A DNA stretch of 32,000 nt from Pseudidiomarina andamanensis (lineage in GTDB: Bacteria > Pseudomonadota > Gammaproteobacteria > Enterobacterales > Alteromonadaceae). The notes under the pieces were generated by a model. The model had not been told where the DNA came from, made no database searches, and saw nothing but the letters and a program-made list of their open reading frames with translations. The stretch lies in the NCBI RefSeq assembly GCF_009734345.1, contig NZ_CP032551.1, positions 2,280,001 to 2,312,000 of the forward strand. Direction: 5' to 3'. The position numbers were made by a program, and so were the translations under genes. The stretch's first letter is position 1, and every line of letters starts with the position of its first letter. Shown here one piece after another: positions 69 to 29,315 of the stretch.

Positions 69-240
69 CGTTATTCGTTATTCGTTAATCGTTATTCGTT
101 AATCGTTATTCGTTAGTTTGGCTCGCTCGATAAATTAAATACGAATTAGCTCACTTCTGTGTGTGCTATTTTTTGTGTTTCGTGTTTCGTGTTTCGTGTT
201 TTTGCTTTTTCGAATAACGAATAACCAATAACGATTAACG
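69..240 (+). repeat. 7-mer-armed palindromic intergenic element, copy 1 (long form, core forward)
   Basis: Left arm 69-115 is CGTTATT CGTTATT CGTTAAT CGTTATT CGTTAAT CGTTATT CGTTA. The core has a GGCTCGCTCG box (120-129), a CTCACTTCTGTGTG box (150-163) and an internal (GTGTTTC)x3 repeat (175-195). Right arm 211-240 is CGAATAA CGAATAA CCAATAA CGATTAA CG, the reverse complement of the left-arm unit. Confidence 0.9.
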
Positions 241-258
241 CATTGTAGCCTTTCTCAT

Positions 259-279
259 ATTAATTTATATTGAATTAAT
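259..279. promoter_or_regulatory. Possible LysR-type operator: ATTAATT-N7-AATTAAT palindrome (T-N11-A class)
   Basis: Perfect 7-bp inverted arms separated by 7 nt lie about 55 nt upstream of the LysR ATG and just before a TTGACT hexamer (281-286). The site is AT-rich, so chance occurrence is possible. Confidence 0.3.
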
Positions 280-334
280 CTTGACTACATATTCAGATAA
301 ACTTAATAAGATAGTGCCTTATGGATTGTGCCTT

Positions 335-1207
335 ATGAAAATACAGCAGCTACAAATGCTCAATGCGTTGAGTGAAACCGGCACATTGCAAGGAGCCGCT
401 GAGCAGCTACACCGAACGCAAGCTGCTGTCAGTATGGCACTTAAAAAGCTTGAGGACGAGGCAGGTTTTCCGCTATTTGACCGTGATGGTTATCGTTTGA
501 AGCTCACCGCTTTTGGCGAACAGTTTCTGCGACAGGCGCGAGAGGTACTCAGGCAACAGCAACGGCTTCAAAGTTTGACGCAACAACTGCGCGAAGGAGC
601 CGAGCCGCTGCTGCGCATTTCCTATGATCATACCTGTGCTCCGGCGAGTTTATTTAAGGCAATGCGCGCCGTGCAAGAGCGTTATCCGGCAACCGATTTA
701 TTACTCAATGGCGAAGCACAACTTCGTTCGTTGCGTGCCGTACGCGAAGGGGAAGCCGATTTGGCATTAACGCCATGGCTGCCAGTGTTTCGTCAACATG
801 GCGACTTTGAAACCAAACTCGTGCGGCCCTTTGAACTGTTAGTGGCAATGTCGCCTAGTTTAGCCGCCAAATATGGTTTGCCTAAACAACGCCGAGACTT
901 ACTCGATATCCCCATGCTCATGCCGCAAAATCAAGATGTCGGTATTAACCTCGATAGAATGATTCGGATGCCGGGGCAACAGCGCATACGCGTGAATGAC
1001 TCCATTGCACAACGTGAACTTCTTGTCGCTGGAATGGGGTGGGGCATTGTGCCTGGCGATATTATTGTGGATGAGCTGGCGCGCGGCGATCTGATTCGCA
1101 TCGACATTCCAGATTTCATTAATCAGGTTCATTTAGAGGTGCATTTGGTGCGTTCAGCAGAGCGAATCGCCGGCCCCGCCGCCCAAATAATTTGGGACCA
1201 CTTTTGA
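335..1207 (+). CDS. LysR-family transcriptional regulator
   Basis: The N-terminal HTH MKIQQLQMLNALSETGTLQGAAEQLHRTQAAVSMALKKLE is typical of LTTRs, followed by a C-terminal substrate-binding-like domain. I place the start at the ATG at 335 rather than the TTG at 281 in the ORF track, because LTTR HTH domains begin within a few residues of Met. Confidence 0.9.
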   Translation: MKIQQLQMLNALSETGTLQGAAEQLHRTQAAVSMALKKLEDEAGFPLFDRDGYRLKLTAFGEQFLRQAREVLRQQQRLQSLTQQLREGAEPLLRISYDHTCAPASLFKAMRAVQERYPATDLLLNGEAQLRSLRAVREGEADLALTPWLPVFRQHGDFETKLVRPFELLVAMSPSLAAKYGLPKQRRDLLDIPMLMPQNQDVGINLDRMIRMPGQQRIRVNDSIAQRELLVAGMGWGIVPGDIIVDELARGDLIRIDIPDFINQVHLEVHLVRSAERIAGPAAQIIWDHF

Positions 1208-1211
1208 AGAG

Positions 1212-1363
1212 CGTTGTTCGTTATTCGTTAGTCGTTATTCGAAAAGCTAAACACGAAACACAAAGGCTAGCGCACAGAAAAACGAGTAAACTTGAATCAG
1301 AGCTATCGAGCGAGCCAAATTCACGAGTAACCAATAACGATTAACGAAAAACGAATAACGAAG
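1212..1363 (-). repeat. 7-mer-armed palindromic intergenic element, copy 2 (long form, core inverted)
   Basis: Left arm 1212-1241 is CGTTGTT CGTTATT CGTTAGT CGTTATT CG. The core is the reverse complement of the copy 1/3 core (AGCGCACAGAAAAACGAG ... TATCGAGCGAGCC). Right arm 1324-1363 is CGAGTAA CCAATAA CGATTAA CGAAAAA CGAATAA CGAAG. The element fills the convergent gap from 4 nt after the LysR stop to 0 nt from the next gene's stop. Confidence 0.9.
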
Positions 1364-1678
1364 TTAAACGAGTTTCTTCCAGATTAAACGCGGCTTCGGC
1401 TCTGGAATATAAATAGCGTAACCGAATTGTGTTCGAAGCTCCGTACCGCTGTTTTGCAAACTCAATAGAGATTCGCTTTTAATATCACTTGCGGTTTCGT
1501 TGCGAATGTCATTGCGCGCAACATCAACACTATGATCCCAGCTACCGACGGCGCGCTCTGCAGAATAAACAAAGCGATACACTTGCATATTAGCTGATTC
1601 AACAGATTCAGCTGCGACAGGTGCTGCAGATGTTATTGCTGCAGCTAAAAAAAGACCTTTCAAAATGGATGTGTTCAT
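1364..1678 (-). CDS. Small secreted hypothetical protein (about 104 aa)
   Basis: The ORF has a Sec-type signal peptide MNTSILKGLFLAAAITSAAPVAA and a GGGGGA Shine-Dalgarno upstream of the ATG at 1678. I recognise no family. It is flanked on both sides by element copies. Confidence 0.55.
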   Translation of the reverse strand: MNTSILKGLFLAAAITSAAPVAAESVESANMQVYRFVYSAERAVGSWDHSVDVARNDIRNETASDIKSESLLSLQNSGTELRTQFGYAIYIPEPKPRLIWKKLV

Positions 1679-1755
1679 GACTAATCCCCCCACGAGATGT
1701 CATGTATTAAGATAGTCTAAAACTGTGAAAGGTTTATGTCACAATTGTAAATAAT

Positions 1756-1891
1756 CGTTACTGGTTGTTCGTTATTGGTTATTCGTGTGCTTGGCTCTCT
1801 GGATAGATTAAATACGAATTAGCTCACTTCTGTGTGCGTTAGCTTTGGTGTTTCGTGTTTCGCTTTTTCGAATAACGAATAACGAATAACG
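1756..1891 (+). repeat. 7-mer-armed palindromic intergenic element, copy 3 (long form, core forward)
   Basis: Left arm 1756-1785 is CGTTACT GGTTGTT CGTTATT GGTTATT CG. A 30-nt core stretch at 1807-1836 (ATTAAATACGAATTAGCTCACTTCTGTGTG) is identical to copy 1 positions 134-163. Right arm 1869-1891 is CGAATAA x3 plus CG, followed by TTTTT. Confidence 0.9.
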
Positions 1892-1950
1892 TTTTTGCAC
1901 TTCATTCACAGCTTTTATCGCAAAGATTGATGCATATATCCTCTTATGAA

Positions 1951-1979
1951 TTTAATTCAGCCACAAAACCTCGTATAAT
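1951..1979 (+). promoter_or_regulatory. Putative sigma70 promoter for acnB
   Basis: There is a perfect TATAAT at 1974-1979 and a weak -35 TTTAAT at 1951-1956 with a 17-nt spacer. It lies inside the upstream extension of the ORF-track acnB ORF, which supports the downstream GTG start. Confidence 0.35.
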
Positions 1980-2019
1980 TCCGCGCACTTTTAAACCGCA
2001 ACAGCAAAAGGGGTACCCA

Positions 2020-4608
2020 GTGCTGCAAGAATATCGTAAGCATGTCGAAGAGCGGGCCGCAGAAGGCATTCCGCCAAAACCACTGACAGCAGAGCAAGTT
2101 GCTGATTTAGTAGAATTATTGAAGAACCCACCAGCCGGTGAAGAAGATTTCTTGGTTGAGCTCATTTCTGAGCGCGTTCCTCCTGGCGTTGACGAAGCGG
2201 CGTACGTTAAAGCAGGCTTCTTGTCAGCCATCGTCAAAGGCGAAACCAGCAGCCCAGTTATTAGCAAAGATGCCGCGGTATCATTGCTTGGTAACATGCA
2301 TGGCGGTTACAACATCGTGACATTGGTAGAGCTATTAGATGACGCAGAACTAGGCGAGCTAGCTGCGGCAGAATTAAAGCACACGTTGTTGATGTTTGAT
2401 GCCTTCCACGACGTGGAAGAGAAAATGAAAAACGGCAATGCGTTGGCGAAAGAAGTCATTGAATCATGGGCTGATGCCGAGTGGTTCACAAGCCGTGACG
2501 AAATGCCTGAAGCCATTAAAGCGACCGTATTTAAAGTAACAGGCGAAACCAACACGGACGATTTGTCACCAGCACCAGATGCATGGTCGCGTCCAGATAT
2601 TCCTTTGCACGCCAAAGCCATGTACAAAATGCCTCGCGAAGGCGTGACTGATGCGGCGAAGCAAATTGAAGAGCTGAAGCAAAAAGGTCACCCAGTAGCG
2701 TTCGTCGGTGACGTTGTTGGTACCGGTTCATCACGTAAGTCAGCGACGAACTCAGTACTTTGGTTCATCGGCGAAGACATGCCAGGCACGCCAAACAAGC
2801 GCGCTGGCGGTATTTGTATTGGTGGCAAAGTTGCACCAATCTTCTTCAACACCATGAAAGACGCAGGCGCGTTGGTGTTTGAAGCTGACGTTGAAAAAAT
2901 GAACATGGGTGATGTGATCACCATTTACCCATATGCCGGCAAAATTGAAAATGAAGCGGGCGACATTATCGCTGAGTACGACTACGCATCACGCGTGATT
3001 CTTGATGAAGTTCGTGCTGGCGGTCGTATTAACCTGATCATCGGTCGTGGTTTGACTGAAAAAGCGCGCGAATCTTTAGGAATGGGTCCATCTGATCTGT
3101 TCTTGAAGCCCGAGCAACCAGCAGATACTGGCAAAGGTTATACCTTAGCGCAGAAGATGGTTGGTAAAGCTTGTGGTATGGAAGGCGTGCGTCCTGGTAC
3201 TTATTGCGAACCGAAAATGACGACTGTTGGTTCACAAGATACCACCGGACCAATGACCCGTGACGAGTTGAAAGACTTAGCATGTTTAGGCTTTACCGCT
3301 GATTTGACCATGCAGTCATTCTGTCACACGGCAGCTTATCCGAAGCCAGTGGATATTGAAACTCAGCATACGTTGCCTGACTTCATTATGAACCGTGGTG
3401 GTGTTAGCTTGCGTCCAGGCGACGGTATCATCCACAGCTGGTTGAACCGTATGTTGTTACCAGACACCGTTGGTACTGGTGGTGACTCACACACCCGTTT
3501 CCCATTGGGTATTTCATTCCCAGCGGGTTCAGGCTTAGTCGCTTTCGCAGCAGCCACTGGTGTGATGCCGCTGGATATGCCTGAATCAGTTTTGGTGCGC
3601 TTCAAAGGCGAAATGCAGCCAGGTATTACATTACGTGACTTAGTACACGCCATTCCTGCGTTCGCAATCAAAGAAGGCTTACTAACTGTTGAAAAACGCG
3701 GTAAGAAGAACATCTTCTCTGGTCGCATTCTTGAAATTGAAGGTTTAGATCACTTAACGGTTGAGCAAGCGTTCGAATTATCAGACGCGTCAGCAGAGCG
3801 TTCAGCTGCAGGTTGTACCATCAACTTGTCAGAAGAGTCTGTTGCTGAGTACTTGCGTTCAAACATCACTATGTTGCGTTGGATGATCAACGAAGGCTAC
3901 GGTGATTCACGTACGCTTGAGCGTCGTGCGCGTAAGATGGAAGAGTGGTTAGCGAACCCGCAATTAATGCGTGCTGATGCTGACGCCGAATACACGGCAG
4001 TGATTGAAATTGATTTGGCAGATATCAAAGAGCCAATCGTTTGTTGCCCGAACGACCCAGACGATGCGAAATTCTTAAGCGAAGTTGCTGGCGATAAAGT
4101 TGACGAAGTGTTCATTGGTTCATGTATGACCAACATCGGTCATTTCCGTGCCGCCGGTAAGTTACTTGAGAAGAACACCCAAGAGCTGAACACGCGTTTG
4201 TGGATTGCACCACCAACGAAGATGGACGAAGCGCAGTTACGTGAAGAAGGTTACTACAACATCTATGCGAACAACGGCGTACGTACTGAAATGCCAGGCT
4301 GTTCACTGTGTATGGGTAACCAAGCACGTGTCGAGGCAGGCACAACGGTGTTGTCGACTTCAACGCGTAACTTCCCGAATCGTTTAGGTGATGGTGCCAA
4401 CGTGTACTTAACTTCAGCGGAATTAGCTGCGGTAGGCGCTATCTTAGGCAAATTGCCAACGCCTGCAGAGTACATGGAATACGCACAAGACATTAACGCC
4501 ATGGCTGGCGAAGTTTACAAGTACTTGAACTTCGATCAGATGGACGCTTTCCGCGAGGCAGAAGCCGCCGCCAAAGCCAACATCATCCCAACCATTAACG
4601 TAGCGTAA
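2020..4608 (+). CDS. acnB: Aconitate hydratase B / 2-methylisocitrate dehydratase (bifunctional aconitase AcnB)
   Basis: The protein is collinear over its full length with E. coli AcnB as I remember it ([111 protein letters not shown]). The E. coli protein begins at MLEEYRKH, so I start at the GTG at 2020 (VLQEYRKH), which has an AAAAGGGG Shine-Dalgarno. The 1927 start in the ORF track is probably an artefactual extension. Confidence 0.95.
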
Positions 4609-4630
4609 TGTTAACGTAGCATAACGTTAG
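4595..4630 (+). repeat. 16-nt tandem duplication spanning the acnB stop codon
   Basis: TTAACGTAGCGTAATG (4595-4610) is followed by TTAACGTAGCATAACG (4611-4626) and then TTAG. The two full units differ at 2 positions. The second unit re-encodes N-V-A-stop in a shifted frame. Confidence 0.6.
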
Positions 4631-4635
4631 TCTTG

Positions 4636-4667: not shown

Positions 4668-4708
4668 TCAAAAATTTCAACCCCTTAAACAAAAGTTATA
4701 AATTTCGC

Positions 4709-5368: not shown

Positions 5369-6001
5369 ATGAAATATCTTGTCATGACAGCGGCGTTAGC
5401 AAGCACAATGGTGCTTGCCGGCTGCTCTAGCACTACTATTGATAATAGCGCTGGCCGCGCAACCGTTTATGAAGATGCACGCTCACCTGGCAAAGTTCAG
5501 GGCGTTGGCGTTGAATCGCAGGACATCATGGCTGTTACCGACCAAATGATGCGCGATATGTTGAGTAATCCTCAGCTTGTCAGTCGCGAAGTTGCACCTC
5601 GAATCATTATTGATAGCCAGTACTTCACCAACGAAAGTTCATCTCGCATCAACAAAAACATGCTCACCGATCGTTTACGTATCAATTTAAACCGTGCCTC
5701 AAATGGCCGTTTAGTTTTCGTCGGTCGTGAATATGCCGACATGGTAGAAAAAGAGCGTGAACTGAAACGCATGGGCGTTGTTGACGGTGGCACGATTCGT
5801 ACCACCCAAGCAACAGCTGGCGCTGATTATCGTTTAGTGGGTCGCATCATGTCACTTGATGCCATGGACACACGTAGCCAAGAACGTTCTCGGTATCATC
5901 AAATCACCTTTGAATTAGTTGACCTTGAACTCGGAACCTATGTCTGGAGTGGCATGTATGAATTCCAAAAAACTGCACAAGACGACGTTATCTATCGCTA
6001 G
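5369..6001 (+). CDS. LpoB/YcfM-like (COG3417-type) outer-membrane lipoprotein
   Basis: The lipobox is VLAGCSS. The length (about 200 aa) and C-terminal pattern (ADYRLVGRIMSLD ... YHQITFELVDLELGTYVWSG) resemble the penicillin-binding-protein-activator LpoB-like family. The assignment is from memory of the family, not a search. Confidence 0.65.
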   Translation: MKYLVMTAALASTMVLAGCSSTTIDNSAGRATVYEDARSPGKVQGVGVESQDIMAVTDQMMRDMLSNPQLVSREVAPRIIIDSQYFTNESSSRINKNMLTDRLRINLNRASNGRLVFVGREYADMVEKERELKRMGVVDGGTIRTTQATAGADYRLVGRIMSLDAMDTRSQERSRYHQITFELVDLELGTYVWSGMYEFQKTAQDDVIYR

Positions 6002-7190
6002 TGCAGCGTTGGTATTGGCGTTGGCAGGGTGTACCAGCACCGGCCCGACGCAATACCAGCCATTAGCACTGAATGCGCAAGAACAAGACGCGGTTACGGA
6101 TAAGCCGGCTTATTTACAGCCGCTTTATCGAAAACTGTTTGAAGAAGGGAAGCGCAACGAAGTTTTAAACCGAATGGAGATTGGTACAGCTGCGTTTTAT
6201 CGAGGTGACCTTGATTTAGCGCGTGAAAACTTTGATGCGGCGTTGGAAACCATTGAAACAGTGTATGCAGATAACGAAGCGGCAACGCAAGCTCGTAGTC
6301 TGTGGCACGAAGAGGGCCGTAAAGACTTTAAAGGTGAGCCTTACGAACGTGCTATGGCGTATTACTATCGCGGTGTGATTTATCTCATTGATGGTGAATA
6401 CGATAACGCCCGTGCCAGTTTTGTCAGTGGTTTAATGCAAGATGCGTTTGCTGAAGAAGAGCAAAACCGGAGTGACTTTGCGGTAATGATGTTATTAGCG
6501 GGCTGGTCGGCTCAGAAAATGGGTAGCCCAGTATTGGCTGAAGAAGCTTATGATGAGCTTCGCGCATTACGTCCTGATTTCCCTATCCCATCTGCTGATG
6601 ACAATGTGCTGATCTTAGCTGAAACCGGCTTCTCACCGCGGAAGTTAGCCGATGGCATGGGGCATTACGAATTGGTTTTCCGCCCAGGTAAAAACTTCAA
6701 AGAAAAGCATGTTGTATTGAATACCGGTGCAGAGCAATTTGAACTCGCACCTGTTGAAAGCGTTTATTGGCAAGCGACGTCACGTGGTGGTCGTCCTGTT
6801 GATGCCATTATTGAAGGAAAGGCTGCATTTGCGAATACCACCGCCGATTTAGGTCGTGATTTAGCCCAACTTGGCGTAACTGCGCGAGTATTTTCGCCAG
6901 CACTTGGTGGTAGTAGTGGTCAAGTGGGTAATACATTAGCACTGATTGGTGTGGCCAGCATGGCATTATCAGCCAATGTTAAACCGCGAGCAGATATCCG
7001 TTATTGGTCGCGCTTGCCTGATGCAGTGCATACCTCAACCATGCGCGCAAACGTTGCAGATGTATCCCAATGGCAAGCGTCTTACACCGATATTGACGGT
7101 AATCCGGTTAGCTTGAAATCAGGTGTGTTTCGACATTACCAAGATTCTCAAGGAAACCATGTGATTTGGCATAGTTCACGGGCTCGATAA
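5958..7190 (+). CDS. Lipoprotein with an N-terminal TPR-like helical region, function unknown
   Basis: The ATG at 5958 gives MNSKKLHKTTLSIASAALVLALAGCTS, a classical lipobox. It overlaps the 3' end of the upstream gene by 44 nt. The helical repeat-like segments are AFYRGDLDLARENFDAAL and YYYRGVIYLIDGEYDNARASF. Confidence 0.7.
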   Translation: MNSKKLHKTTLSIASAALVLALAGCTSTGPTQYQPLALNAQEQDAVTDKPAYLQPLYRKLFEEGKRNEVLNRMEIGTAAFYRGDLDLARENFDAALETIETVYADNEAATQARSLWHEEGRKDFKGEPYERAMAYYYRGVIYLIDGEYDNARASFVSGLMQDAFAEEEQNRSDFAVMMLLAGWSAQKMGSPVLAEEAYDELRALRPDFPIPSADDNVLILAETGFSPRKLADGMGHYELVFRPGKNFKEKHVVLNTGAEQFELAPVESVYWQATSRGGRPVDAIIEGKAAFANTTADLGRDLAQLGVTARVFSPALGGSSGQVGNTLALIGVASMALSANVKPRADIRYWSRLPDAVHTSTMRANVADVSQWQASYTDIDGNPVSLKSGVFRHYQDSQGNHVIWHSSRAR

Positions 7191-7210: not shown

Positions 7211-7675
7211 ATGAAACGTACGTTATTTATTATTGCTGCTGGTTTAACGTTAACACTAGCCGGCTGTGGAAGCACACAGAATGGTTACAGTGGCGCACAT
7301 CCAGTGCAACGCACAACAACCAATGAGCTCAATACAATTGTATTTATTGATCACAACCTCAATCGTACCGATATCACGAAAACGTTCATGGGCGAAAAAG
7401 TCCGTGATACCGTGAAAGTGACACTTGATCGCAGTGGTATGAGTAACACCGCCACCGGCCAGCTTGAGGTTTGGACAATGATCCGTAACCGTACGGATTA
7501 TGATCTGCAAATTGAAGGCAAGGCGTTGTTTTTTGATGCAAATCAAACACCATTAATGGATGAATCAATGTGGCGTCGCGTCTATGTTCCCGCCAATGGA
7601 ACAGCGATTTACAAAGAAACATCGTTAAATGATCGCGCAGAGTACTTCTTAGTAGAATTAAGAGAAGGTCGATAA
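7211..7675 (+). CDS. YcfL/DUF1425-like lipoprotein
   Basis: The lipobox is TLAGCGS. The beta-rich C-terminal pattern (LEVWTMIRNRTDYDLQIEGKALFFDANQTPL ... VPANGTAIY ... AEYFLVELR) resembles the YcfL family, which is a genomic neighbour of lpoB in E. coli. Confidence 0.6.
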   Translation: MKRTLFIIAAGLTLTLAGCGSTQNGYSGAHPVQRTTTNELNTIVFIDHNLNRTDITKTFMGEKVRDTVKVTLDRSGMSNTATGQLEVWTMIRNRTDYDLQIEGKALFFDANQTPLMDESMWRRVYVPANGTAIYKETSLNDRAEYFLVELREGR

Positions 7676-8606: not shown

Positions 8607-9896
8607 GCAACCAAATGGATCACGTTAATGCTGAGTTGGCTACTTGCGTCTTGTAGCTCCTCAGCGCTACCACCACCTCTACAACTCAGTGATGGCGTTT
8701 ATTGGTCAACCCACTACCAGAGCTATTTGGTTGTTGATGATGACATTGTCACGCGTTATCAATGGACGCCAAGTCAGTGCTGGTCAGCTGATGCAGGCTT
8801 ACTTCCACGGGTGTTTTCAAGCGCTCAAAATCCTGGTCAGCATACTTGGATTGGTGCTGGCGAACGTACATTAGTTCTTCAACGATTATCAGATGGCCTA
8901 CCGGTTATTTTTACTCGGGAACCTTTTCTGCCGCGCCATTGTACGAAGCCTCCTGAAAATACCGCTGTAAATGTTGTCATATCTGTTAGCGAAATACTTG
9001 CTCAGTTTCATCATGGTATCTCGCAAGCAGCACTAATACGTTGGCGTTCTGAAGCCGAGCTACTTGATAAGGCGGTTGAGATGCCAGTGCTCGATAAGAA
9101 ACTGGCGCTGTTTCAAATTGTAAGTGAAGTATTGGAGGATAGCAGCGACGAGCATGCTTTTATTCTGGCAAATGATATTCAGCGATACCACCGCGTCAGC
9201 GATTTTGCGGTAGGTGAATCGCAGCGTAAACAATCTCGTCAAAACCTGCTGAATCAACTACGACAAAGCCGGCTGACTCAGGGGTGTAACGAGGCATTGT
9301 GGTGGGGTCTGTTGACCACCGGTGAGTATTATCTCGGAGTCCAACGGTTGCATTTATATGGCACCGATGCCTCTTACAGCGAAGCGGGACAACGCTGTTT
9401 GCAACGCTCGTTGAGAGCTGTTGAGGAAGAATTAAAGCGAGTGATTCAAACTCGAGGTGAGAAACCTAAACTGCTTATTGATCTGCGCTTTAATGAGGGC
9501 GGTAGTTTGTTGTTAGCAAGTCAGTTGGCCAATAGTCTTGTGAGTCGAGAAGAGCCTTTGACAACCATTCGGCAGCAAGCAGTTTATGAGCAACGGTCGC
9601 CGAATTTAGAGGCGCTTCATCAGCAAGGTACGGTACTGGTGACAGAAGTGACGGCAAGCGCAGCTGAGCATCTCGCTCAAGCATTGCGGTTGCGTGGATT
9701 TTTATTGCGCGGCCAAAACACCCGTGGCGCATTCGCACCGACCACAGTGAAGAGTTTACCGAATGGCTGGGTGGTAGGGCTGTCGATGTATGCGCCCAAA
9801 GAGATGCTCGATGGGCGCGGTACAGTGTTACCGGAAGGCGTCGGGTTAACCCCCGACGAAACACTTTCCCCCGAAATCTTATTTCCGGCGAAGTAG
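8601..9896 (+). CDS. S41 (C-terminal processing/tail-specific) peptidase-like lipoprotein, possibly non-catalytic
   Basis: A TTG start with a lipobox (WLLASCSS). S41-type boxes are present: LLIDLRFNEGGSLLLA and VLVTEVTASAAEHLAQAL. The expected G-x-x-T-x-G-K-G box reads GQNTRGAF. Confidence 0.65.
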   Translation: MSATKWITLMLSWLLASCSSSALPPPLQLSDGVYWSTHYQSYLVVDDDIVTRYQWTPSQCWSADAGLLPRVFSSAQNPGQHTWIGAGERTLVLQRLSDGLPVIFTREPFLPRHCTKPPENTAVNVVISVSEILAQFHHGISQAALIRWRSEAELLDKAVEMPVLDKKLALFQIVSEVLEDSSDEHAFILANDIQRYHRVSDFAVGESQRKQSRQNLLNQLRQSRLTQGCNEALWWGLLTTGEYYLGVQRLHLYGTDASYSEAGQRCLQRSLRAVEEELKRVIQTRGEKPKLLIDLRFNEGGSLLLASQLANSLVSREEPLTTIRQQAVYEQRSPNLEALHQQGTVLVTEVTASAAEHLAQALRLRGFLLRGQNTRGAFAPTTVKSLPNGWVVGLSMYAPKEMLDGRGTVLPEGVGLTPDETLSPEILFPAK

Positions 9897-9930
9897 CCCG
9901 GCTTTACTTTGCAGTGGAACGCCGGGCTAC
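9893..9930. terminator. Perfect 10-bp hairpin at the convergent junction (possible bidirectional terminator)
   Basis: GTAGCCCGGC (9893-9902) pairs with GCCGGGCTAC (9921-9930) around an 18-nt loop. The hairpin covers the TAG of the + gene and the TAA and last codons of the - gene. There is no clear U-tract. Confidence 0.4.
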
Positions 9931-11727
9931 GCCCTCATCAATCCAGTTGCGGATTTCTTGTTCGAGGATGTCGAGCGGGATACTGCCGTTGCGCAGAACT
10001 ACGTGATGGAACTCACGCAGGTCAAAGTCGGCGCCGAGTGCGGTTTCAGCCTCGGTGCGCAATTGACGGATGAGCATTTCGCCAAGTTTGTACGACAGCG
10101 CCTGACCTGGCCAGGTGATGTAACGGTCAATTTCAGTCTTCACGTTATGTAGGCTTAGAGCTGTATTCGAAGCCATGAAGTCCATGGCTTCTTCACGGGT
10201 CCAACCCATAGCGTGCATGCCCGTATCAACTACCAAACGGGCGGCGCGCCACATTTCATAACTCAAACGACCAAAGTCACTGTATGGGTCTTGATAGAAG
10301 CCCATTTCTTTACCAAGCCACTCCGAATATAAGCCCCACCCTTCGCCAAAGGCAGAGATATAAGTATAGCGGCGGTAGTCTGGCAAGTTATCCATTTCGC
10401 GCGCTAATGCCCCTTGTAAATGGTGCCCCGGCACAGCCTCGTGCAAGGTTAGCGCCTCCAACTGATACAACGGACGACGGTCTAATGCGTAGGTATTTAC
10501 CCAGTAAAAACCAGCGCGGTCACTGCGATTGCTGCCAGCGTAGCGACCTGTGGTGTATTTCGGTGCAATTTCCGCAGGCACCGGCGCCACACCGTATGGC
10601 TGACGTGGTAGCAACTTAAAGAATTTCGGCAATTCACCGTCGGCTTTTTTGGCAATATATGAAGCTTCTTTCAACAATTCCTCGGCAGTCTTCGGATAAA
10701 ACTGCGGATCAGTACGCAAGAAATTCGTGAATTCTTCGAAGCTACCTTTAAAACCTGTTTTCTCGATCACCACCGCCATTTCATTACGAATTCGCTCAAC
10801 TTCGGCGAGGCCGCGCTGATGAATTTCTTCAGGCGATAAATCTAACGTGGTGTAATGCTTTATGCGGTTTTGATAATACTCACGACCGTTCGGTAGTTCA
10901 CTTGCACCGACGCTGTCGCGACTGTTTGGCAAGTATTCCATGACCATAAAATCGAAATAGTCTTGATAAGCAGGAAGCACTAACCCATCAATAACATTGG
11001 CTGCCTGTGTTTGTAACTGTTGCCACTGCTCAGCGGTGACAAATATTGGCTTATTTGTCTGAAACGGTTGGTAGAACAAACTCTCTTGTGGCGATTGAAC
11101 AATGTATGCAGCGATGCTTTCTTCAAAGCCCTGCATGGCCGCTTTGGGTTGCGTGTAGCCTTCGTTAAGCGCGGCTTTTAACCAATCGGTTTGTTGAGAC
11201 ATATAACGCGGAATAGATCGCAAGCGCTGTAAGTAATTTTGATAATCCTCAAAACTACGGAAACTGGCATTACGTACCATAAAACCTAGGTTGCTGTGAA
11301 ATCCGCCCTCGGCGTTGAGCGGCATGTAATGCTCTTTGTAAGCAAAGCCATCGATGTCATTCTTGAGGCCGTAAGTTAGCATACGGTGATTAATTTGGTT
11401 TTGTCGTGACAGCGCATTCACATCAACCTGCTCAAGTTGCGCTAACCATACGCTTTGCTCATCAGCGCGCTGCTTTAAGGCTTCAGCCGACATATCGGGT
11501 AACTCTTCACTCTGCCAGGGGTTCTGCGCTTGTAGCTTCTTATAAATGCCATCAGCTAGCGCTTGGTAGCGGCTGTCTGCACTCTCAACAACTTGTTTAG
11601 TACTGGTGTCAGGTTTTGCTTCTTGGGTCGCGGCACAACCACCTAATAATAGAGTCAGCGAGGTGGCTAAAACGGTGGTTTTAAACAGGTGCTTCCTGCG
11701 TAACGCAGCAGTGAATTCTGAACGCAT
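9904..11727 (-). CDS. DUF885-family secreted protein (metallopeptidase-like)
   Basis: The signal peptide has a lipobox-like LLGGCAA. The HEAVPGHHLQ motif and the length (about 600 aa) are typical of DUF885. Confidence 0.8.
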   Translation of the reverse strand: MRSEFTAALRRKHLFKTTVLATSLTLLLGGCAATQEAKPDTSTKQVVESADSRYQALADGIYKKLQAQNPWQSEELPDMSAEALKQRADEQSVWLAQLEQVDVNALSRQNQINHRMLTYGLKNDIDGFAYKEHYMPLNAEGGFHSNLGFMVRNASFRSFEDYQNYLQRLRSIPRYMSQQTDWLKAALNEGYTQPKAAMQGFEESIAAYIVQSPQESLFYQPFQTNKPIFVTAEQWQQLQTQAANVIDGLVLPAYQDYFDFMVMEYLPNSRDSVGASELPNGREYYQNRIKHYTTLDLSPEEIHQRGLAEVERIRNEMAVVIEKTGFKGSFEEFTNFLRTDPQFYPKTAEELLKEASYIAKKADGELPKFFKLLPRQPYGVAPVPAEIAPKYTTGRYAGSNRSDRAGFYWVNTYALDRRPLYQLEALTLHEAVPGHHLQGALAREMDNLPDYRRYTYISAFGEGWGLYSEWLGKEMGFYQDPYSDFGRLSYEMWRAARLVVDTGMHAMGWTREEAMDFMASNTALSLHNVKTEIDRYITWPGQALSYKLGEMLIRQLRTEAETALGADFDLREFHHVVLRNGSIPLDILEQEIRNWIDEGVARRSTAK

Positions 11728-11951: not shown

Positions 11952-12863
11952 ATGAACAACGCGCAAACGGGCATTTACGCAGAACCCAATTTACACGGCA
12001 TCACGCTCTTGTTGAATGTGATGACTGACGATGCCGACTATATGCGCCGCAAACTAGCGCGAGTTCCTAAGTTGATTGACGATCTTGATCTTCGCTTCTC
12101 TGAATCAATGCTGAATGGTTTTATTGCCGTGGGCAGCGATTACTGGGATGTGCTGTATCCCGATGTGCGACCGTTGCAATTAGCAAGTTTTCCAGATTTG
12201 AGCGACGGTGATCGACACACACCGCGTGAATCGGCTGACTTACTATTGTGTATTCGCTCCGATCGCTTTGATGTGAATTTTCAAGCTGCGCGTACATTAA
12301 TGGAATGGCTCGGTCACGATGTTGAGCTGGTAGAGCAGAGCAATACCTTCCGCTTTATGGATGGCCGCGATCTACTCGGTTTTATCGATGCGCCTGACAA
12401 CCCTCGTGGCATGCGTCGTCGCGAGGTTGCCGTTGTTTCTGACGATGCCATTTTCAAAGGTGGTAGCTATGTGTTTACCCAAAAATTCCGTTATGACTTA
12501 AGGCGCTGGGAGCAGTTAAGCACCGAAATTCAAGAGCATGTGATGGGGCGGAAGAAAGTAACCGGTGAGCGTATCAGTGAAGCGGTACTTAGCATGGTCA
12601 CGCATACTCAAAAAGCCCGTTTATTAGATGTTAATGAGCAGCCACTCGAATTATTGCGTCAGAATATGCCGTGGGGCGATCTTCGTGAACAAGGGCAGTT
12701 GGCGATGTATTTTTCAGGTAAGCCGCAACATGTGGTGCAGTGGCTCAAGAATCGCTACATTGCAGATGAGCAGGGCGATTATGATCCGTTGTTAGATTAC
12801 ATTGAGGCAACGGCAAACGCGGCCTATTTCGCCCCCTCAATTGAGTTCCTGAAAAATCGTTAA
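11952..12863 (+). CDS. Dyp-type peroxidase (YfeX-like)
   Basis: It resembles E. coli YfeX in the N-terminus (QTGIY vs QSGIL), in LLGFIDAPDNPRG vs LSGFVDGTENP, in REVAVV, GGSYVF and in the C-terminal YFAPS. I start at the ATG at 11952, which has a GAGGA Shine-Dalgarno. The TAA stop lies inside the first heptamer of element copy 4. Confidence 0.85.
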   Translation: MNNAQTGIYAEPNLHGITLLLNVMTDDADYMRRKLARVPKLIDDLDLRFSESMLNGFIAVGSDYWDVLYPDVRPLQLASFPDLSDGDRHTPRESADLLLCIRSDRFDVNFQAARTLMEWLGHDVELVEQSNTFRFMDGRDLLGFIDAPDNPRGMRRREVAVVSDDAIFKGGSYVFTQKFRYDLRRWEQLSTEIQEHVMGRKKVTGERISEAVLSMVTHTQKARLLDVNEQPLELLRQNMPWGDLREQGQLAMYFSGKPQHVVQWLKNRYIADEQGDYDPLLDYIEATANAAYFAPSIEFLKNR

Positions 12864-12995
12864 TCGTTATTCGTTATTCGTTATTCGTGCGTTCGTCTCG
12901 CTGTTGAAAATTGAGGCAAACTTGATCATTTTTTTGTGTGGTCGCTTTGGTTTTTCGCTTTTCGCTTTTCGCATTTTCGCATTTTCGAATAACGC
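12858..12995 (+). repeat. 7-mer-armed palindromic intergenic element, copy 4 (core forward, degenerate right arm)
   Basis: Left arm 12858-12887 is CGTTAAT CGTTATT x3 plus CG. The core GTTCGTCTCGCTGTTGA...TTTGGTTTTTCG closely resembles copy 7. An internal array of TTTTCGC x3 and ATTTTCGC x2 lies at about 12952-12987. The right arm is reduced to CGAATAACG. The element fills the whole convergent gap between the dyp and argR stops. Confidence 0.85.
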
Positions 12996-15160: not shown

Positions 15161-15237
15161 CTAATGTTATAGTTCGTGGCGAAATTGATCAAAAATCCTC
15201 CTTGTATTATTTGAACAATTGGCGATATTTAATACAG

Positions 15238-15259
15238 TGCATAGTACTTTAGTGCTATG
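15238..15259. promoter_or_regulatory. Palindrome or hairpin in the TonB-dependent receptor leader
   Basis: GCATAGTAC-TTTA-GTGCTATGC forms a 9-bp stem with one T/G position. It lies about 50 nt upstream of the ATG at 15309. It may be an operator or a 5' UTR hairpin; its function is unknown. Confidence 0.25.
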
Positions 15260-15308
15260 CGCATTCGCACAACAACACAAAACAACAAGAATAATCGGGG
15301 AGAAATTT

Positions 15309-19001: not shown

Positions 19002-19068
19002 CGTTACTCGTTATTGGTTACTCGTTACTCGAAAAACAAAACGAACGAATAACGAATAACGAATAACG
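19002..19068. repeat. 7-mer-armed palindromic element, copy 5 (minimal hairpin form, no core)
   Basis: CGTTACT CGTTATT GGTTACT CGTTACT CG, then the loop AAAAACAAAA, then CGAA CGAATAA x3 CG. It begins 3 nt after the ispB TAG. Confidence 0.85.
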
Positions 19069-19071: not shown

Positions 19072-19100
19072 TTTACTCACGCAGCGAGTTTATGTACAAT
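19072..19100 (+). promoter_or_regulatory. Putative sigma70 promoter of rplU-rpmA
   Basis: TTTACT (19072-19077), a 17-nt spacer and TACAAT (19095-19100) lie 55 nt upstream of the rplU ATG and immediately after element copy 5. Confidence 0.45.
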
Positions 19101-19822: not shown

Positions 19823-20995
<1,173 letters not shown>

Positions 20996-20998: not shown

Positions 20999-21128
20999 CG
21001 TTACTCGTTATTCGTTATTGGTTACTCGAAAAACCAAAAGACAATGCGCATAGAAGTGAGCAAATACGTTTGCGATTTCAAGAGCGCGCTGAAGCCACGA
21101 ATAACGAATAACGAACAACGAATAACGA
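20999..21128 (-). repeat. 7-mer-armed palindromic intergenic element, copy 6 (long form, core inverted)
   Basis: Left arm 20999-21028 is CGTTACT CGTTATT CGTTATT GGTTACT CG. The core contains CGAAAAACC ... CATAGAAGTGAGC ... AGAGCGCGCTGAAGCC, the reverse complement of the forward boxes. Right arm 21098-21128 is CGAATAA CGAATAA CGAACAA CGAATAA CGA. The element begins 3 nt after the obg stop and ends 13 nt before the folA ATG. Confidence 0.88.
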
Positions 21129-24514: not shown

Positions 24515-25671
24515 GTAAGTCTGTTCGCAGTCCAATAGGAATTGTTTGGCGCAAAGAGTTAAAAGACGCAATTCGTGACAAACGCTCAGTAATGGCGGCT
24601 ATGTCGTACGCTTTTTTCGGACCATTACTCATGGCGGTTGCGTTTTACGTCATGATCAGTCAACTCACTGATCCAAGCGATGTTGAAATTGACATCAAAG
24701 GCGCGGAGCACGCACCAGCCCTCATCGATTACTTACAACAGCAAGGCATTATTGAACGTGAGAAAGATTGGCCGGCAGGTCAACAGCCTATTGAGCTGGT
24801 TATTGGTGAAACTTGGGCGGAAGATATTGCAACGGCACAGCCAGCTCCAGTGACACTAACCGCTGACTTTAGTGCAACCAAACAACGTTCGGACATTCGC
24901 CGAATTGAAAAAGCCATTGAAGGTTATAGCAGTAAGCTCTCGTTTATTCGTCTGCAAATGCGCGGGCTCGATCCACGTGTGGTACAGCCGATTGATTTGG
25001 TCAAACACGATACCGCAACGAAAGGCTCTCGCTCAGCTATTTTGATGGGAAGCGTCCTGATATTCATCCTGTTGTCAGTATTCTTCTCTGGCATGAACGT
25101 TGCCATTGATATTAGCGCCGGAGAACGAGAACGTAACTCACTCGAGTTGCTGTTATCACAACCACTGAGTTCTCATCAGTTGGTATTAGGTAAGGCTTTC
25201 GCAGCAAGCTGTTTTGCCATGTTTGGTGGCGTGTTAAGTGTGGTGTTGATCCCGCTTATTTTCCGCTTCTTACCATTACACGAAATCGGCATCAGTGTTG
25301 CTATTGAATGGCCAATGATGTTGTTGATGGTGCTTATGTTGGCACCGTTAGCCCTGTTCGCAACGGCACTTCAGCTATTTGTTAGCTTCCGCGCCAAGAG
25401 CTTTAAAGAAGCGCAAACCTACATTTCGTTCTTGTTGATGCTGCCAATGTTAGCCGTATTTGGCGTTGAATTCGCGCGCCTTAAGAACCCTGTTCTTTAC
25501 TATTTACCTCTAACAGGTCAGCACCAAGCATTGCTTGATATCATTAAGGGCGAAGCATTGCAGTGGTTGCCATTATTGGTCAGTGGGGTAGTTACGGCGA
25601 TTGTGAGTTTGTTGATTATTCGCTTTATTGGCAAAATGCTCGCCAGCGAAAAAGTCGTCTTCGGCCTGTAA
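24511..25671 (+). CDS. ABC-2 type permease (NatB-like)
   Basis: An ATGA overlap with the ATPase gene indicates translational coupling. The protein has an N-terminal TM helix, a large extracytoplasmic loop and a C-terminal bundle of about 5 TM helices, as in NatB-type permeases. Confidence 0.85.
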   Translation: MSKSVRSPIGIVWRKELKDAIRDKRSVMAAMSYAFFGPLLMAVAFYVMISQLTDPSDVEIDIKGAEHAPALIDYLQQQGIIEREKDWPAGQQPIELVIGETWAEDIATAQPAPVTLTADFSATKQRSDIRRIEKAIEGYSSKLSFIRLQMRGLDPRVVQPIDLVKHDTATKGSRSAILMGSVLIFILLSVFFSGMNVAIDISAGERERNSLELLLSQPLSSHQLVLGKAFAASCFAMFGGVLSVVLIPLIFRFLPLHEIGISVAIEWPMMLLMVLMLAPLALFATALQLFVSFRAKSFKEAQTYISFLLMLPMLAVFGVEFARLKNPVLYYLPLTGQHQALLDIIKGEALQWLPLLVSGVVTAIVSLLIIRFIGKMLASEKVVFGL

Positions 25672-25679
25672 AGCAAGAG

Positions 25680-25800
25680 CGTTGTTCGTTATTCGTTATT
25701 CGTGGGTTCGTCTCGCTGTTGAGGTTAGAGACAAATTTGCTCATATTTCTGTGTGATCACTTTGGTTTTTCGACTAACGACTAACGACTAACGAATAACG
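25680..25800 (+). repeat. 7-mer-armed palindromic intergenic element, copy 7 (core forward)
   Basis: Left arm 25680-25702 is CGTTGTT CGTTATT CGTTATT CG. The core GTTCGTCTCGCTGTTGAGG...CATATTTCTGTGTGATCACTTTGGTTTTTCG closely resembles copy 4. Right arm 25771-25800 is CGACTAA x3, CGAATAA, CG. The last 13 nt are also the final codons (V-I-R) and stop of the convergent oxidoreductase gene. Confidence 0.9.
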
Positions 25801-27119: not shown

Positions 27120-27138
27120 AGCGCCAGGCCTTTTTAAT

Positions 27139-27696
27139 TTAGAATTTCAGTATCATTTCACCAGCAGTACAGTAGCAAACGCCATCGCAGACAGGGCAAT
27201 GGTAACCTTCGTTAATCGACAGATCATACCAACGCTTGTTGTGCTCGCGAATCAATTCGCCACCGCAACGCGTAAAATATTCAAACGCTGCATTTTGTGG
27301 GCTTTGCATCCAAATATGGGCTAAACCTGCTTTACAACCAAGCTTCTTCGCTTCAGTTATTGAGCGCTCTAGTAAGCCACGACCAATACCGCCACCACGT
27401 ACGTCAGGGTCAACCGCCACACATTTAAAGTAACAGATTTGTTCGGGCGGAACAGGCCAATCAGATGGACTACAGTGACCATCGATATCCCAGTTACCCG
27501 GGGCGAAGGTCAACCGAATACCCGCTAATTTGCCATCAGCAAAGGCAAGCCAATTCAAATTAATGTCGCCCACGCGGCCGCGTTGGTCGTAGTCAGCAAG
27601 TGATTCTGGCGTCAAATAGTTGTCGCCATGAACGCGGTTGCCTAATTCAAGTACGGCCGCGTAATCGGCGGCCGTCAGTTGCTTGTATTCAATCAT
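27139..27696 (-). CDS. GNAT-family N-acetyltransferase with a Cys-rich C-terminal tail
   Basis: The acetyl-CoA box is VAVDPDVRGGGIGRGLLE. The C-terminus is EGYHCPVCDGVCYCTAGEMILKF. The ATG lies 5 nt from element copy 8. Confidence 0.8.
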   Translation of the reverse strand: MIEYKQLTAADYAAVLELGNRVHGDNYLTPESLADYDQRGRVGDINLNWLAFADGKLAGIRLTFAPGNWDIDGHCSPSDWPVPPEQICYFKCVAVDPDVRGGGIGRGLLERSITEAKKLGCKAGLAHIWMQSPQNAAFEYFTRCGGELIREHNKRWYDLSINEGYHCPVCDGVCYCTAGEMILKF

Positions 27697-27701
27697 AAGT
27701 T

Positions 27702-27791
27702 CGTTGTTCGTTAATCGTTAATCGTTATTCGTAGGTTATTTGTCACTTCGCTTTTCCTTTTCGAATAACGAATAACCAATAACGAATAACG
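27702..27791 (+). repeat. 7-mer-armed palindromic intergenic element, copy 8 (short core)
   Basis: Left arm 27702-27731 is CGTTGTT CGTTAAT CGTTAAT CGTTATT CG. The 30-nt core is TAGGTTATTTGTCACTTCGCTTTTCCTTTT. Right arm 27762-27791 is CGAATAA CGAATAA CCAATAA CGAATAA CG. It lies between the ahcY stop (3 nt away) and the GNAT start (5 nt away). Confidence 0.88.
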
Positions 27792-27794
27792 TTT

Positions 27795-29159
27795 TTAGTA
27801 GCGGTAGTCGTCAGACTTGAATGGTCCCTCGACGGCTACGTGAATGTAATCCGCTTGCTGCTGCGTTAATTTCGTCACCACGCCACCGAAACCTTGCACC
27901 ATATAACGAGCAACTTCCTCGTCGAGCTGCTTCGGCAACACTTCAACGCGAAGCTTGGCAGTTTTTTCAGACGCTGGCAAGTCAGCAAATTTTTCTTCGA
28001 ACAAGTGCATTTGCGCTAATACCTGGTTGGCAAACGAGCCATCCATGATGCGGCTTGGGTGACCCGTCGCGTTGCCTAAGTTTACCAATCGACCTTCTGA
28101 CAAAAGCAACAAATAGTCGTTGTCGTCGTCGCTACGATAGATCTTGTGAACTTGAGGTTTTACTTCGTCCCAGCGCCAGTTATCACGCATAAACTTGGTA
28201 TCAATTTCGTTATCGAAGTGACCGATGTTACAAACCACAGCAGTAGATTTCAATGCCGCCAGCATATAGCGGTCGCACACATTCACGTTACCGGTAGTGG
28301 TGACAATCAGGTCAATATTCTGCAATAAGTCACGGTTGATGCCTTCAGCAGAATTCGTATTCACGCCATTAATGTATGGCGAAACGACTTCGTAACCATC
28401 CATACACGCTTGCATGGCACAAATTGGGTCAACTTCAGTCACTTTGACGATCATGCCTTCTTGGCGCAAGCTGGCAGCTGAGCCTTTACCGACATCGCCG
28501 TAACCAACAACCAATGCTTTCTTACCTGATAATAAGTGATCAGTTGCACGCTTAATCGCATCATTCAAAGAGTGACGGCAACCGTACTTGTTGTCGTTCT
28601 TTGACTTGGTGACGGAGTCGTTTACGTTGATAGCTGGTACACGTAAAGTCCCGTGCTTCAACATTTCGAGTAAACGGTGTACACCTGTTGTGGTTTCTTC
28701 CGTAATGCCGTGAATTTTGTCGAGCATTTGTGGGTATTTATCATGAATTAACAGGGTCAAATCACCACCGTCATCCAAAATCATGTTGGCATCCCAAAGC
28801 TCGCCATCTTTGCGACATGTCTGCTCCAAACACCACTCGTACTCTTCTTCCGTTTCGCCTTTCCAAGCAAATACAGGCACACCAGCTGCTGCCATTGCTG
28901 CTGCAGCATGATCTTGCGTCGAGAAAATGTTGCAAGAAGACCAGCGAACTTCTGCACCCAATTCAATCAACGTTTCAATTAGTACCGCTGTTTGAATGGT
29001 CATGTGAATACAGCCAATGATGCGCGCGCCAGACAATGGTTTGCTATCAGCGTACTTACGACGAATGGTCATCAACGCTGGCATTTCTGATTCAGCGATA
29101 GCGATTTCTTTGCGGCCCCAATCGGCCAAGCTGATGTCTGCGACTTTGTAATCTTGCAT
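27795..29159 (-). CDS. ahcY: Adenosylhomocysteinase (S-adenosyl-L-homocysteine hydrolase)
   Basis: [27 protein letters not shown] is the canonical SahH N-terminus. Also present are the NAD fold [20 protein letters not shown] and [17 protein letters not shown]. Confidence 0.96.
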
Positions 29160-29175
29160 ATAAAACCTCTTAATT

Positions 29176-29315
29176 CGTTATTCGTTACTCGTTACTCGTT
29201 ATTCGTAGTTCTGCTCGCTGGTTCACTCTTCATAGCGATTCGCACATTTTTCTGTGCGGTAACTGCTGTCATTCGCTTTTTTTCTCGAATAACCAATAAC
29301 GAACAACGAATAACG
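29176..29315 (+). repeat. 7-mer-armed palindromic intergenic element, copy 9 (long form, core forward)
   Basis: Left arm 29176-29205 is CGTTATT CGTTACT CGTTACT CGTTATT CG. The core has CTGCTCGCTGG, TTTTTCTGTGCGG and CGCTTTTTTTCTCG boxes. Right arm 29286-29315 is CGAATAA CCAATAA CGAACAA CGAATAA CG. It lies between the kinase stop (9 nt away) and the ahcY start (16 nt away). Confidence 0.9.

Follow-up and report, generated by a model that had tools for sequence, protein, structure and literature searches.

A stretch of 32,000 nucleotides of the Pseudidiomarina andamanensis chromosome (NZ_CP032551.1, positions 2,280,001 to 2,312,000; the window in what follows) contains nine palindromic elements in the spaces between its genes, each consisting of two inverted arms that are built of tandem heptamers with the basic unit CGTTATT. 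These elements probably belong to a lineage-specific, non-coding fold-back family that resembles repetitive extragenic palindromic (REP) sequences, their paired form REPIN and MITEs (miniature inverted-repeat transposable elements), with two inverted arms of ~28 bp (typically four heptamers) and an optional oriented core. As a REP/MITE-like fold-back family with heptamer-built arms it is apparently undescribed. An earlier note, made from the letters of the window only, had suggested a dispersed family of palindromes whose arms have a heptamer period, a proposal that is supported by the analysis and to which a REP/REPIN-like niche and evolutionary behaviour can now be added. The occupied spaces are mostly 3' ends of genes that lack a canonical GC-rich terminator, the heptamer is lineage-specific since a sister family uses GATATTA instead, and in congeners the heptamer elements are interchangeable with true GTAG-REPINs.

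All nine elements were found between window positions 69 and 29315 where they had been placed, with a length of 67-172 nt each and the summed length of 1146 bp that had been claimed. Only small shifts of the ends were necessary, as the arms of copies 2, 4 and 6 stop at 1360, 12994 and 21127 and not at 1363, 12995 and 21128. The description of a loop in copy 5 and of a core in the other copies also stands, albeit with corrected sizes, 11 nt instead of 10 for the loop and 34-102 nt instead of 30-95 for the cores. The arm 14-mer CGTTATTCGTTATT has 54 matches with two or fewer mismatches in the 32 kb as compared to 0.31 expected from 100 shuffles, and 53 of these are within the nine elements, the exception being a site at 7221 with two mismatches. 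Tandem Repeats Finder (TRF) reported the period-7 arrays, and with a custom period-7 detector the window tracts are exclusively inside the nine elements. The polarity (CGTTATT)n ... (AATAACG)n is found in 9/9 elements and its reverse never, the termini following the pattern CGTTAYT...ARTAACG, and the number of units per arm varies from 1 to 7 and is exactly 4 in 12 of the 18 arms. As predicted, pairing of the arms into long stems is possible on either strand (dG -20 to -55 kcal/mol, z -1.4 to -7.8). The variants in left and right arms are not compensatory; in copy 7, for example, the left arm has ATT units and the right arm an AGT unit that is amplified locally (CGACTAA, three times). Convergent gaps harbor copies 2, 4 and 7, tandem gaps copies 5, 6, 8 and 9, and divergent gaps copies 1 and 3, and the dyp and DAO open reading frames (ORFs) terminate within the arms of copies 4 and 7. 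Such a mixture of gap types together with ORF ends inside arms is typical of inserted DNA.

How are the elements related to each other? The cores of copies 1, 2, 3, 4, 6, 7 and 9 are homologous, confirming a shared oriented core that is inverted in copies 2 and 6, and the three sequence boxes that had been named in it correspond to conserved columns of the core alignment. The right half of the core is itself built of heptamer arrays (CGTGTTT, CGCTTTT), with CGTGTTT four times in copy 1 (171-201) and CGCTTTT/CGCATTTT arrays in copy 4 (CGCTTTT three times). No conserved RNA structure was detected in the core by RNAalifold (-0.97 kcal/mol, virtually no covariation). A homologous oriented core of 75 nt in seven copies suggests copy-and-paste of whole units.

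For the comparison with related species, orthologous gaps were taken from contigs encoding an identical L21 or L27 protein (contigs and loci are given below by L-numbers) and 21-kb syntenic loci were compared for P. tainanensis, P. donghaiensis, a P. gelatinasegens-like genome and a P. maritima-group genome. A rough tree derived from a five-protein identity matrix has the form (maritima-group,(donghaiensis,(gelatinasegens-like,(andamanensis,tainanensis-group)))). Elements with CGTTATT heptamers are called type A and those of the GATATTA sister family type B; the occupancy of six gaps is listed in the table together with the coordinates of the nine elements.

Table. Coordinates of the nine heptamer elements of the window and occupants of the orthologous gaps in related Pseudidiomarina species (positions in window nucleotides; orientation refers to the core; A, CGTTATT heptamers; B, GATATTA heptamers; A+GC, CGTTATT arms with GC-rich core).
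Copy	Position	Orientation	Left arm	Core or loop	Right arm	Site	Gap compared	Window type	maritima group	donghaiensis	gelatinasegens-like	tainanensis group
1	69..240	+	69-117 (7 units)	118-212	213-240 (4 units)	divergent, minus-strand gene start (~position 50) vs lysR						
2	1212..1360	-	1212-1239 (4 units)	1240-1325, inverted	1326-1360 (5 units)	convergent, lysR vs 104-aa gene						
3	1756..1891	+	1756-1783 (4 units)	1784-1870	1871-1891 (3 units)	divergent, upstream of acnB						
4	12858..12994	+	12858-12885 (4 units)	12886-12987	12988-12994 (1 unit)	convergent; dyp stop codon TAA within first left-arm unit	dyp>argR	A, long core	none (genes overlap)	GTAG-REPIN	A+GC	B
5	19002..19068	.	19002-19029 (4 units)	11-nt A-rich loop, coreless	19041-19068 (3 units + 1 degenerate)	ispB to rplU promoter interval (-35 at 19072)	ispB>rplU	A, short loop	degenerate half A	REPIN + right half of A	A+GC	B
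6	20999..21127	-	20999-21026	21027-21099, inverted	21100-21127	obg->folA	obg>folA	A, long core	empty (12 nt)	REPIN	A+GC	polymorphic: B, A+GC or empty
7	25680..25800	+	25680-25700 (3 units)	25701-25772	25773-25800 (4 units)	convergent; stop codon of minus-strand DAO gene inside right arm	abcP>DAO	A, long core	empty (3 nt)	four tandem REP units	A+GC	B
8	27702..27791	.	27702-27729	27730-27763, truncated (34 nt)	27764-27791	ahcY->GNAT, minus-strand genes	GNAT>ahcY	A, short core	canonical GC-rich terminator	A+GC	A+GC	B
9	29176..29315	+	29176-29203	29204-29287	29288-29315	pfkB->ahcY, minus-strand genes; end 16 nt upstream of ahcY start codon	ahcY>pfkB	A, long core	none (49 nt)	A+GC	B	B, + leftover CGTTACT unit in L371

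In the basal P. maritima-group locus four to five of the six gaps are without elements. The CGTTATT arms occur in P. andamanensis, in a P. marina-like metagenome-assembled genome (MAG), in P. gelatinasegens, in P. donghaiensis and in one gap of P. tainanensis, so that the family extends beyond the window to at least five Pseudidiomarina species or lineages, and only the andamanensis/marina cluster has the window-type core. Where two types occupy the same gap they start at one and the same nucleotide, which is where the homology between the lineages stops, and remnants of older type-A elements are seen as a half element beside a REPIN (L373) and as one CGTTACT unit beside a type-B element (L371). 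Eight other gaps of similar size contain a heptamer element in none of the species compared, rpmA>obg being among them with a GTAG-REP insert in some relatives. A fixed set of gaps thus hosts different families across species and forms repeat niches that are permissive, one palindromic family being replaced there by another, unrelated one. Replacement of this kind within a niche is familiar from the REP/BIMEs of enterobacteria. By sequence inspection the heptamers of both types share a common register, as TTATTCG of type A and ATATTAG, CTATTAG or ATATTGG of type B all fit NTATTNG. The type-B elements of L129 and L130 are identical in 57 of 58 arm positions and in only ~76% of the core (counted by eye); the arms are conserved across species and the cores are variable. 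The obg->folA type-B element of L129 ('Idiomarina sp. 34-48-12', 5844-6093) is duplicated at a higher order, a 42-nt block of the left arm, CAAATTCGATATTAGCTATTAGATATTGGATATTAGAACTG, being present three times and the right arm twice, giving a gap of 250 nt.

Two kinds of polymorphism that had been expected among relatives were observed. Presence/absence polymorphism was seen at obg->folA, where the gap is an empty 20 nt in L131 and L134, holds a GATATTA element in L130 and a CGTTATT element with GC-rich core in L137, with flanks that are 99.8-99.9% identical between L130 and L137 and 96.8-99.7% identical between L131/L134 and L130. The empty site reads AAAAC-G-GTTTT and is a mini-palindrome. 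Variation of the unit number was seen at copies 5 and 7, the right arm of copy 5 having 3, 5 or ~10 units and that of copy 7 having 4 or 9 units across close strains, that is 3 to 10 units among strains with ~99% identical flanking DNA. Copy 4 does have the single right unit attributed to it in this genome, and its ortholog in L124, a 98.7%-identical strain, has three. The same contig (Logan SRR14866213) shows a junction near 1478 at which obg, cut at window position 20516, is fused to the dyp 3' end and the copy 4 region (window 12824 on); this is either a chimeric assembly or a true rearrangement, and its obg side is without heptamer element. Moreover, at least eight independent short-read assemblies of P. 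andamanensis break inside the arms at both contig ends, ahcY contigs for example consisting of the gene +/- ~45 nt. The expectation of many copies throughout the genome is partly borne out, as a tenth copy lies ~5.1 kb past the right window edge (5' end of L266) and assemblies end in arms; both are only indirect support for a high copy number.

To which class do the elements belong? The earlier note had recognized no named family in them, and this holds for all collections searched: none of the 4227 covariance models of Rfam gave a hit at gathering thresholds and those with E <= 1 were chance-level hairpins, blastn with copy 7 found no match in a plasmid collection, and full-text literature searches with arm-sequence strings and for Idiomarina repeats returned nothing. 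In behavior the elements are close to REP, REPIN and BIME sequences. A REP is defined as a unit of 20-40 bp with a 5-13-bp stem, a 2-20-nt loop, a GTAG or CGTC tag and association with a RAYT (PMC3733652), and the GTAG and CGTC super-families mobilized by RAYT served as reference (Di Nocera et al., 2013, PMC3733652; Bertels and Rainey, 2011, PMC3116915). Like these (PMC3733652; PMC3116915), the elements are extragenic, dispersed, palindromic, high-copy and lineage-specific, lack target-site duplications, often lie over gene ends and occupy the same conserved extragenic spaces across related species with species-specific turnover of the sequence type, GTAG-REPINs of P. donghaiensis being found in four of the six gaps. 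Unlike these, they have arms of 21-49 nt made of tandem heptamers, hypervariable units, an optional oriented core of 34-102 nt, neither a GTAG nor a CGTC end tag and no RAYT that could be found in the fetched DNA, in agreement with the view that they are not REP/BIMEs. Within the elements GTAG is confined to the point where arm and core meet in copies 8 and 9, and the true GTAG-REPs (GTAGCCCGGCG...) form a separate family in these genomes.

Several members of that GTAG-REP family and of other repeat families were encountered in the course of the comparison. In the window, a GTAG-REP-like pair at 9893-9930, GTAGCCCGGCTTT on the plus and GTAGCCCGGCGTT on the minus strand, lies over the converging gene ends of an S41 peptidase and a DUF885 protein and is the sole window trace of the family that is abundant in P. 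donghaiensis. There, GTAG-tagged REPINs of the form GTAGCCCGGCGTTTTACGCCGGG ... CCCGGCG..CGCCGGGCTAC are located in L373 at 5658-5820, 9019-9138, 11170-11279 and 15760-16002 (also in L374 and L375), and inside the dyp>argR REPIN a 22-nt unit, TTGCTTCGATTAGCCGCAGCCA, is repeated in tandem, 3 times in L373 and 5 times in L375. In the rpmA->obg gap of L122 (4259-4420), L370/L371 (9853-10000) and L373 (9861-10000) an insert of ~65-80 nt that contains a GTAG-REP lies upstream of the canonical terminator conserved there; the window, with a gap of 82 nt, lacks this insert. Another variable repeat family occurs in the P. tainanensis group, where the S41>DUF885 gap (only 7 nt long in the window) is filled by a GC-rich unit of 52 nt, CAATCACGGCGCTATGCGCCACCCGGCGCATCAACACCGAATTATCCCCATG, in 1-3 tandem copies (L370 2593-2759, L372 2785-2899, L371 2691-2753).

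With bacterial MITEs (Correia/NEMIS, ERIC, RUP, Nezha) the elements share the small size, terminal inverted repeats around a short non-coding and variable interior, the intergenic location, presence/absence polymorphism (be it by insertion or by deletion) and the capacity to provide stop codons or regulatory signals to adjacent genes. They differ by inverted repeats that are 7-bp periodic and variable in length and by the lack of a target-site duplication, which the earlier note had already remarked: the best flanking direct repeats are 2-4 nt long and no better than those of 2000 random position pairs. A cognate insertion sequence (IS) with the same ends was not found in the window or the fetched loci, and no parent IS of this kind is known. 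The absence of unique spacers is likewise confirmed, as the repeats come in inverted pairs that are scattered between the genes over 29 kb, which does not agree with a CRISPR array. That they are no VCR/attC sites, as had also been stated, is evident from their neighbors, which are housekeeping genes conserved in synteny between the species, and from the lack of both an integrase and a cassette array.

Tandem heptamer arrays as such are known and common in bacteria (PMC4679880, PMC4692102). Intergenic TAACTGA arrays occur in Beggiatoaceae, cyanobacteria and Bacteroidetes, and in BOGUAY 169 direct sets, facing the downstream start codon, are found vs 1 inverted set (PMC4679880). The elements described here resemble such arrays and the STRRs in 7-nt tandem units, intergenic location, variable copy number, mixture of related heptamers and the lack of a known mechanism. 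Cyanobacterial STRRs are further intergenic tandem heptamer arrays. In contrast to the direct arrays, the elements are inverted pairs around a loop or core in 9/9 cases and are dispersed with shared cores. Long inverted arms of short tandem sub-repeats with variable arms and a variable center are also found in eukaryotic Foldback/Galileo-type transposons (PMC3573991, PMC4079207); these are eukaryotic, of kilobase scale and linked to known transposase superfamilies, so the likeness is one of architecture only and does not imply membership.

Is the heptamer conserved beyond the genus? Genome and metagenome scans yielded CGTTANT arrays from many phyla, but a heptamer specially conserved across phyla had to be rejected, as matched controls were similarly frequent or more so in viral contigs. 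Triples of CGTTATT number 19 there vs 47, 12 and 16 for composition-matched controls. The cross-phylum matches thus reflect the general abundance of heptamers and not common ancestry, and the claim is limited to Pseudidiomarina. Sporadic inverted arrays of CGTTACT/AGTAACG type, in both polarities unlike in Pseudidiomarina, were seen in MAGs of Saprospiraceae, Anaerolineae, Chloroflexota, Thermomicrobia, Acidobacteriaceae and Thermoanaerobaculia (L005 4460-4603, L009 4341-4400, L053 1510-1560, L090 7097-7160, L039 5100-5215, L118 465-580). In addition, metagenome contigs of low GC content (0.35-0.43) contain fold-backs with arms of 100-200 nt (L186 1507-1717, L211 4383-4551, L234 2189-2381, L254 1835-2012; also L150, L167, L190, L220 and L250), in which CGTTATT is mixed with the 7/8-nt units CGTGGACT, CGTGTATT, CGTTGATT and CGTTATC around a small loop, TTTTGCTTCGCAAAA, that they have in common; they represent an analogous family of another organism.

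Presumably the elements spread within the genome by means of a trans-acting enzyme encoded elsewhere that would recognize the heptamer arms, probably as hairpin, the best guess being a RAYT-like HUH/Y1 or another transposase. The length of the arms may be altered by replication slippage, and gap alleles may pass between lineages via homologous recombination of short tracts. In transcripts, the A/U-rich stems of 28 bp could serve as 3'-end barriers or terminator substitutes, which would be a secondary effect and not the reason for the existence of the elements. Several observations weigh against such a mobile family. No significant match to E. coli RayT was found by tblastn in 2.78 Mb of fetched DNA, and in the fetched loci no arm pair encloses a transposase-like ORF. 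The lack of target-site duplications and of a GTAG or CGTC tag gives no pointer to a transposition chemistry. Replacement of families at identical boundaries with few remnants is, as judged from the sequences, not what random insertion would predict; the empty obg->folA site could be the scar of a hairpin deletion and not a pre-insertion site; and the conservation of orthologous copies far above neutral flanks, detailed below, could mean a host function and not selfish DNA. As to the terminator role, few copies have a proper U-tract and two are situated in promoter gaps. A candidate for an autonomous version in L011 was discarded, as the enclosed ORF encodes a GNAT acetyltransferase, and clustering of neighboring proteins over 240 loci recovered as recurrent only translated repeats and sigma-54 activators.

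If the elements had a function for the host they could be RNA or DNA hairpin modules selected as bidirectional terminators, insulators or RNase III/3'-end protection at operon ends, for which the palindromic families would be functionally interchangeable, an explanation that is possible though rather unlikely. It draws on the distribution in the window, where seven of the nine copies lie at gene 3' ends; of the 3'-end gaps seven have elements, four or five have canonical terminators and none has both. The canonical GC-rich terminators are those of acnB->g4, tonB->ispB, rpmA->obg and folE2->pfkB, with a weak one at DUF3718->hydrolase. In the same vein, at GNAT->ahcY a canonical GC-rich terminator of the P. 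maritima group takes the place of the heptamer elements of other species, and in the subset of gaps compared first the occupancy coincides between the type-A and the type-B lineage (both 4, one only 0, neither at least 8; p ~0.002). A-rich stretches on the 5' side and T-rich ones on the 3' side enclose many of the copies, and this together with the mutual exclusion of terminators would fit a terminator-substitute or 3'-end-barrier effect. However, the U-tract on the relevant strand is missing in most copies, termination is irrelevant to copies 1 and 3, which sit in divergent promoter gaps, the orientation of the core is independent of the direction of transcription, the core has no conserved RNA structure, the arm variants are not compensatory, and the obg->folA element is dispensable within one species cluster. 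A terminator scan did not flag the elements, their stems being A/T-rich with T-rich 3' flanks in some copies only, and outward promoters in the elements were unsupported by a promoter scan. Because of the copies in promoter gaps, the few U-tracts and a core orientation that ignores transcription, a function is treated here as secondary and unproven. The conservation of orthologous copies, which also speaks for hairpin modules, is striking: copy 7 (left arm and core) is identical in 91 of 93 positions between the window and L148, as compared to 63.7% and 56.0% of third-codon positions in the flanking abcP and DAO, and copy 6 in 126 of 129 positions between the window and L132, as compared to 70.1% and 62.7% (Fisher p ~1e-15 for each contrast), that is ~97.7% vs 56-70%. 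The peak of identity is, however, a patch of 370-420 nt that is centered on the element, decays in both directions and takes in ~125 nt of the gene on either side, which is what a recombination tract would look like. From the sequences, selection on the element with hitch-hiking flanks and short-tract homologous recombination moving gap alleles would fit equally well, and recombination would in addition explain why gap alleles do not track the divergence of the flanks. Purifying selection confined to the elements was therefore rejected.

Could the palindromes have arisen where they are, by slippage and quasi-palindrome template switching at existing hairpins and without any transposition? Tandem heptamer triples of similar composition are common, as the viral contigs show, inverted heptamer arrays appear sporadically in many phyla, the number of units is hypervariable and mutated units are amplified locally (CGACTAA in copy 7). 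Nevertheless, this appears very unlikely, since one oriented 75-nt core is common to seven copies, all copies of a genome are built of the one lineage-specific heptamer with four as the modal number of units per arm, and two unrelated types plus an empty state exist at one site with nearly identical flanks; independent slippage cannot yield shared cores, a shared heptamer and a multi-state site. Only a slim chance is given to the proposal that the arms would be arrays of binding sites that organize DNA or RNA, one heptamer per monomer, for an H-NS-like protein, for IHF/gyrase as in BIMEs or for a cold-shock OB-fold protein. A measured cis-site is suggested by the modal number of four units and by arms that are better conserved than the cores, and the high-affinity motif of H-NS, tCG(t/a)T(a/t)AATT, may partially resemble TCGTTAAT and TCGATATT. 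A precedent is CspB, of which one protein is bound per heptamer (PMC4679880). Binding alone leaves dispersal and shared cores unexplained and would serve better as a supplement to the model of a mobile element. A telomerase-like or reverse-transcriptase activity that adds heptamers to both 3' ends of a break, the joining of which results in (X)n...(rcX)n, would give the invariant polarity, the variable number of units per side, variable fillers and a lineage-specific heptamer with replacement in place. This wholly speculative scheme is extremely improbable, as no such enzyme was seen and as shared 75-nt cores, position-specific unit variants and the modal four units fit better to copying of whole elements. 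A further reading, tentative and unlikely, is that the arms are cis-sites or products of an undescribed trans-acting system that would measure DNA or RNA in 7-nt steps and prefer existing palindromes; candidates may be a new hairpin-targeting transposase/HUH family or a templated repeat-writing enzyme. Integration into existing palindromes would explain why type A with GC-rich core, type A with long core, type B and GTAG-REPINs succeed each other within identical boundaries and leave hardly any remnants.

The surroundings of the elements are inconspicuous. A 1.78-Mb contig of GCA_054779515.1 is 100% identical to the window, the Obg, AhcY and FolE2 proteins encoded in it match those of P. andamanensis, the window genes are all ordinary chromosomal genes, among them lysR, acnB, lpoB, dyp, argR, mdh, ispB, rplU-rpmA-obg, folA, an ABC transporter gene, ahcY, pfkB and folE2, and the neighbors of the elements are housekeeping genes according to Pfam, which detected no transposase gene encoded in the 32 kb; there is no tRNA in the window. 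Two tandem duplications are unrelated to the heptamer family, TTAACGTAGCATAACG ×2.2 across the acnB stop codon (4595-4629) and GATAGTGCCTTATG ×2 immediately upstream of the lysR start codon (310-337). A TonB-dependent receptor gene between a rhomboid gene and ispB (15219-17915) is present in P. andamanensis, L129, L132, L136 and L378 and absent from the same interval in the P. tainanensis group, P. donghaiensis and the P. maritima group (compared: L130, L371, L373, L379), with synteny otherwise conserved. In L379 of the P. maritima group (15814-16855) the DAO oxidoreductase, which has 442-444 aa in other species, is called as a 249-aa fragment followed by a structured gap of 292 nt and is possibly a pseudogene.

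The heptamer elements add a structurally distinct type to the bacterial extragenic palindromic repeats, in a genus in which none had been described before, and by linking generic heptamer simple-sequence repeats to fold-back elements they may help to explain why heptamers are the favored long unit in prokaryotic intergenic regions. In practical terms, the arms are hypervariable minisatellites and as such ready-made variable-number tandem repeat (VNTR) markers for strain typing, and they are a cause of the fragmentation of short-read assemblies of these genomes. Should a system measuring in 7-nt steps be true, the elements would be a new class of bacterial fold-back mobile element and not a variant of REPs or MITEs. 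Pseudidiomarina offers a natural experiment, with close species whose corresponding gaps are filled by type A, type B or GTAG-REPINs or are almost empty, and comparative genomics in this genus could identify the factor that mobilizes or recognizes the elements and reveal how palindromic families displace each other in place.

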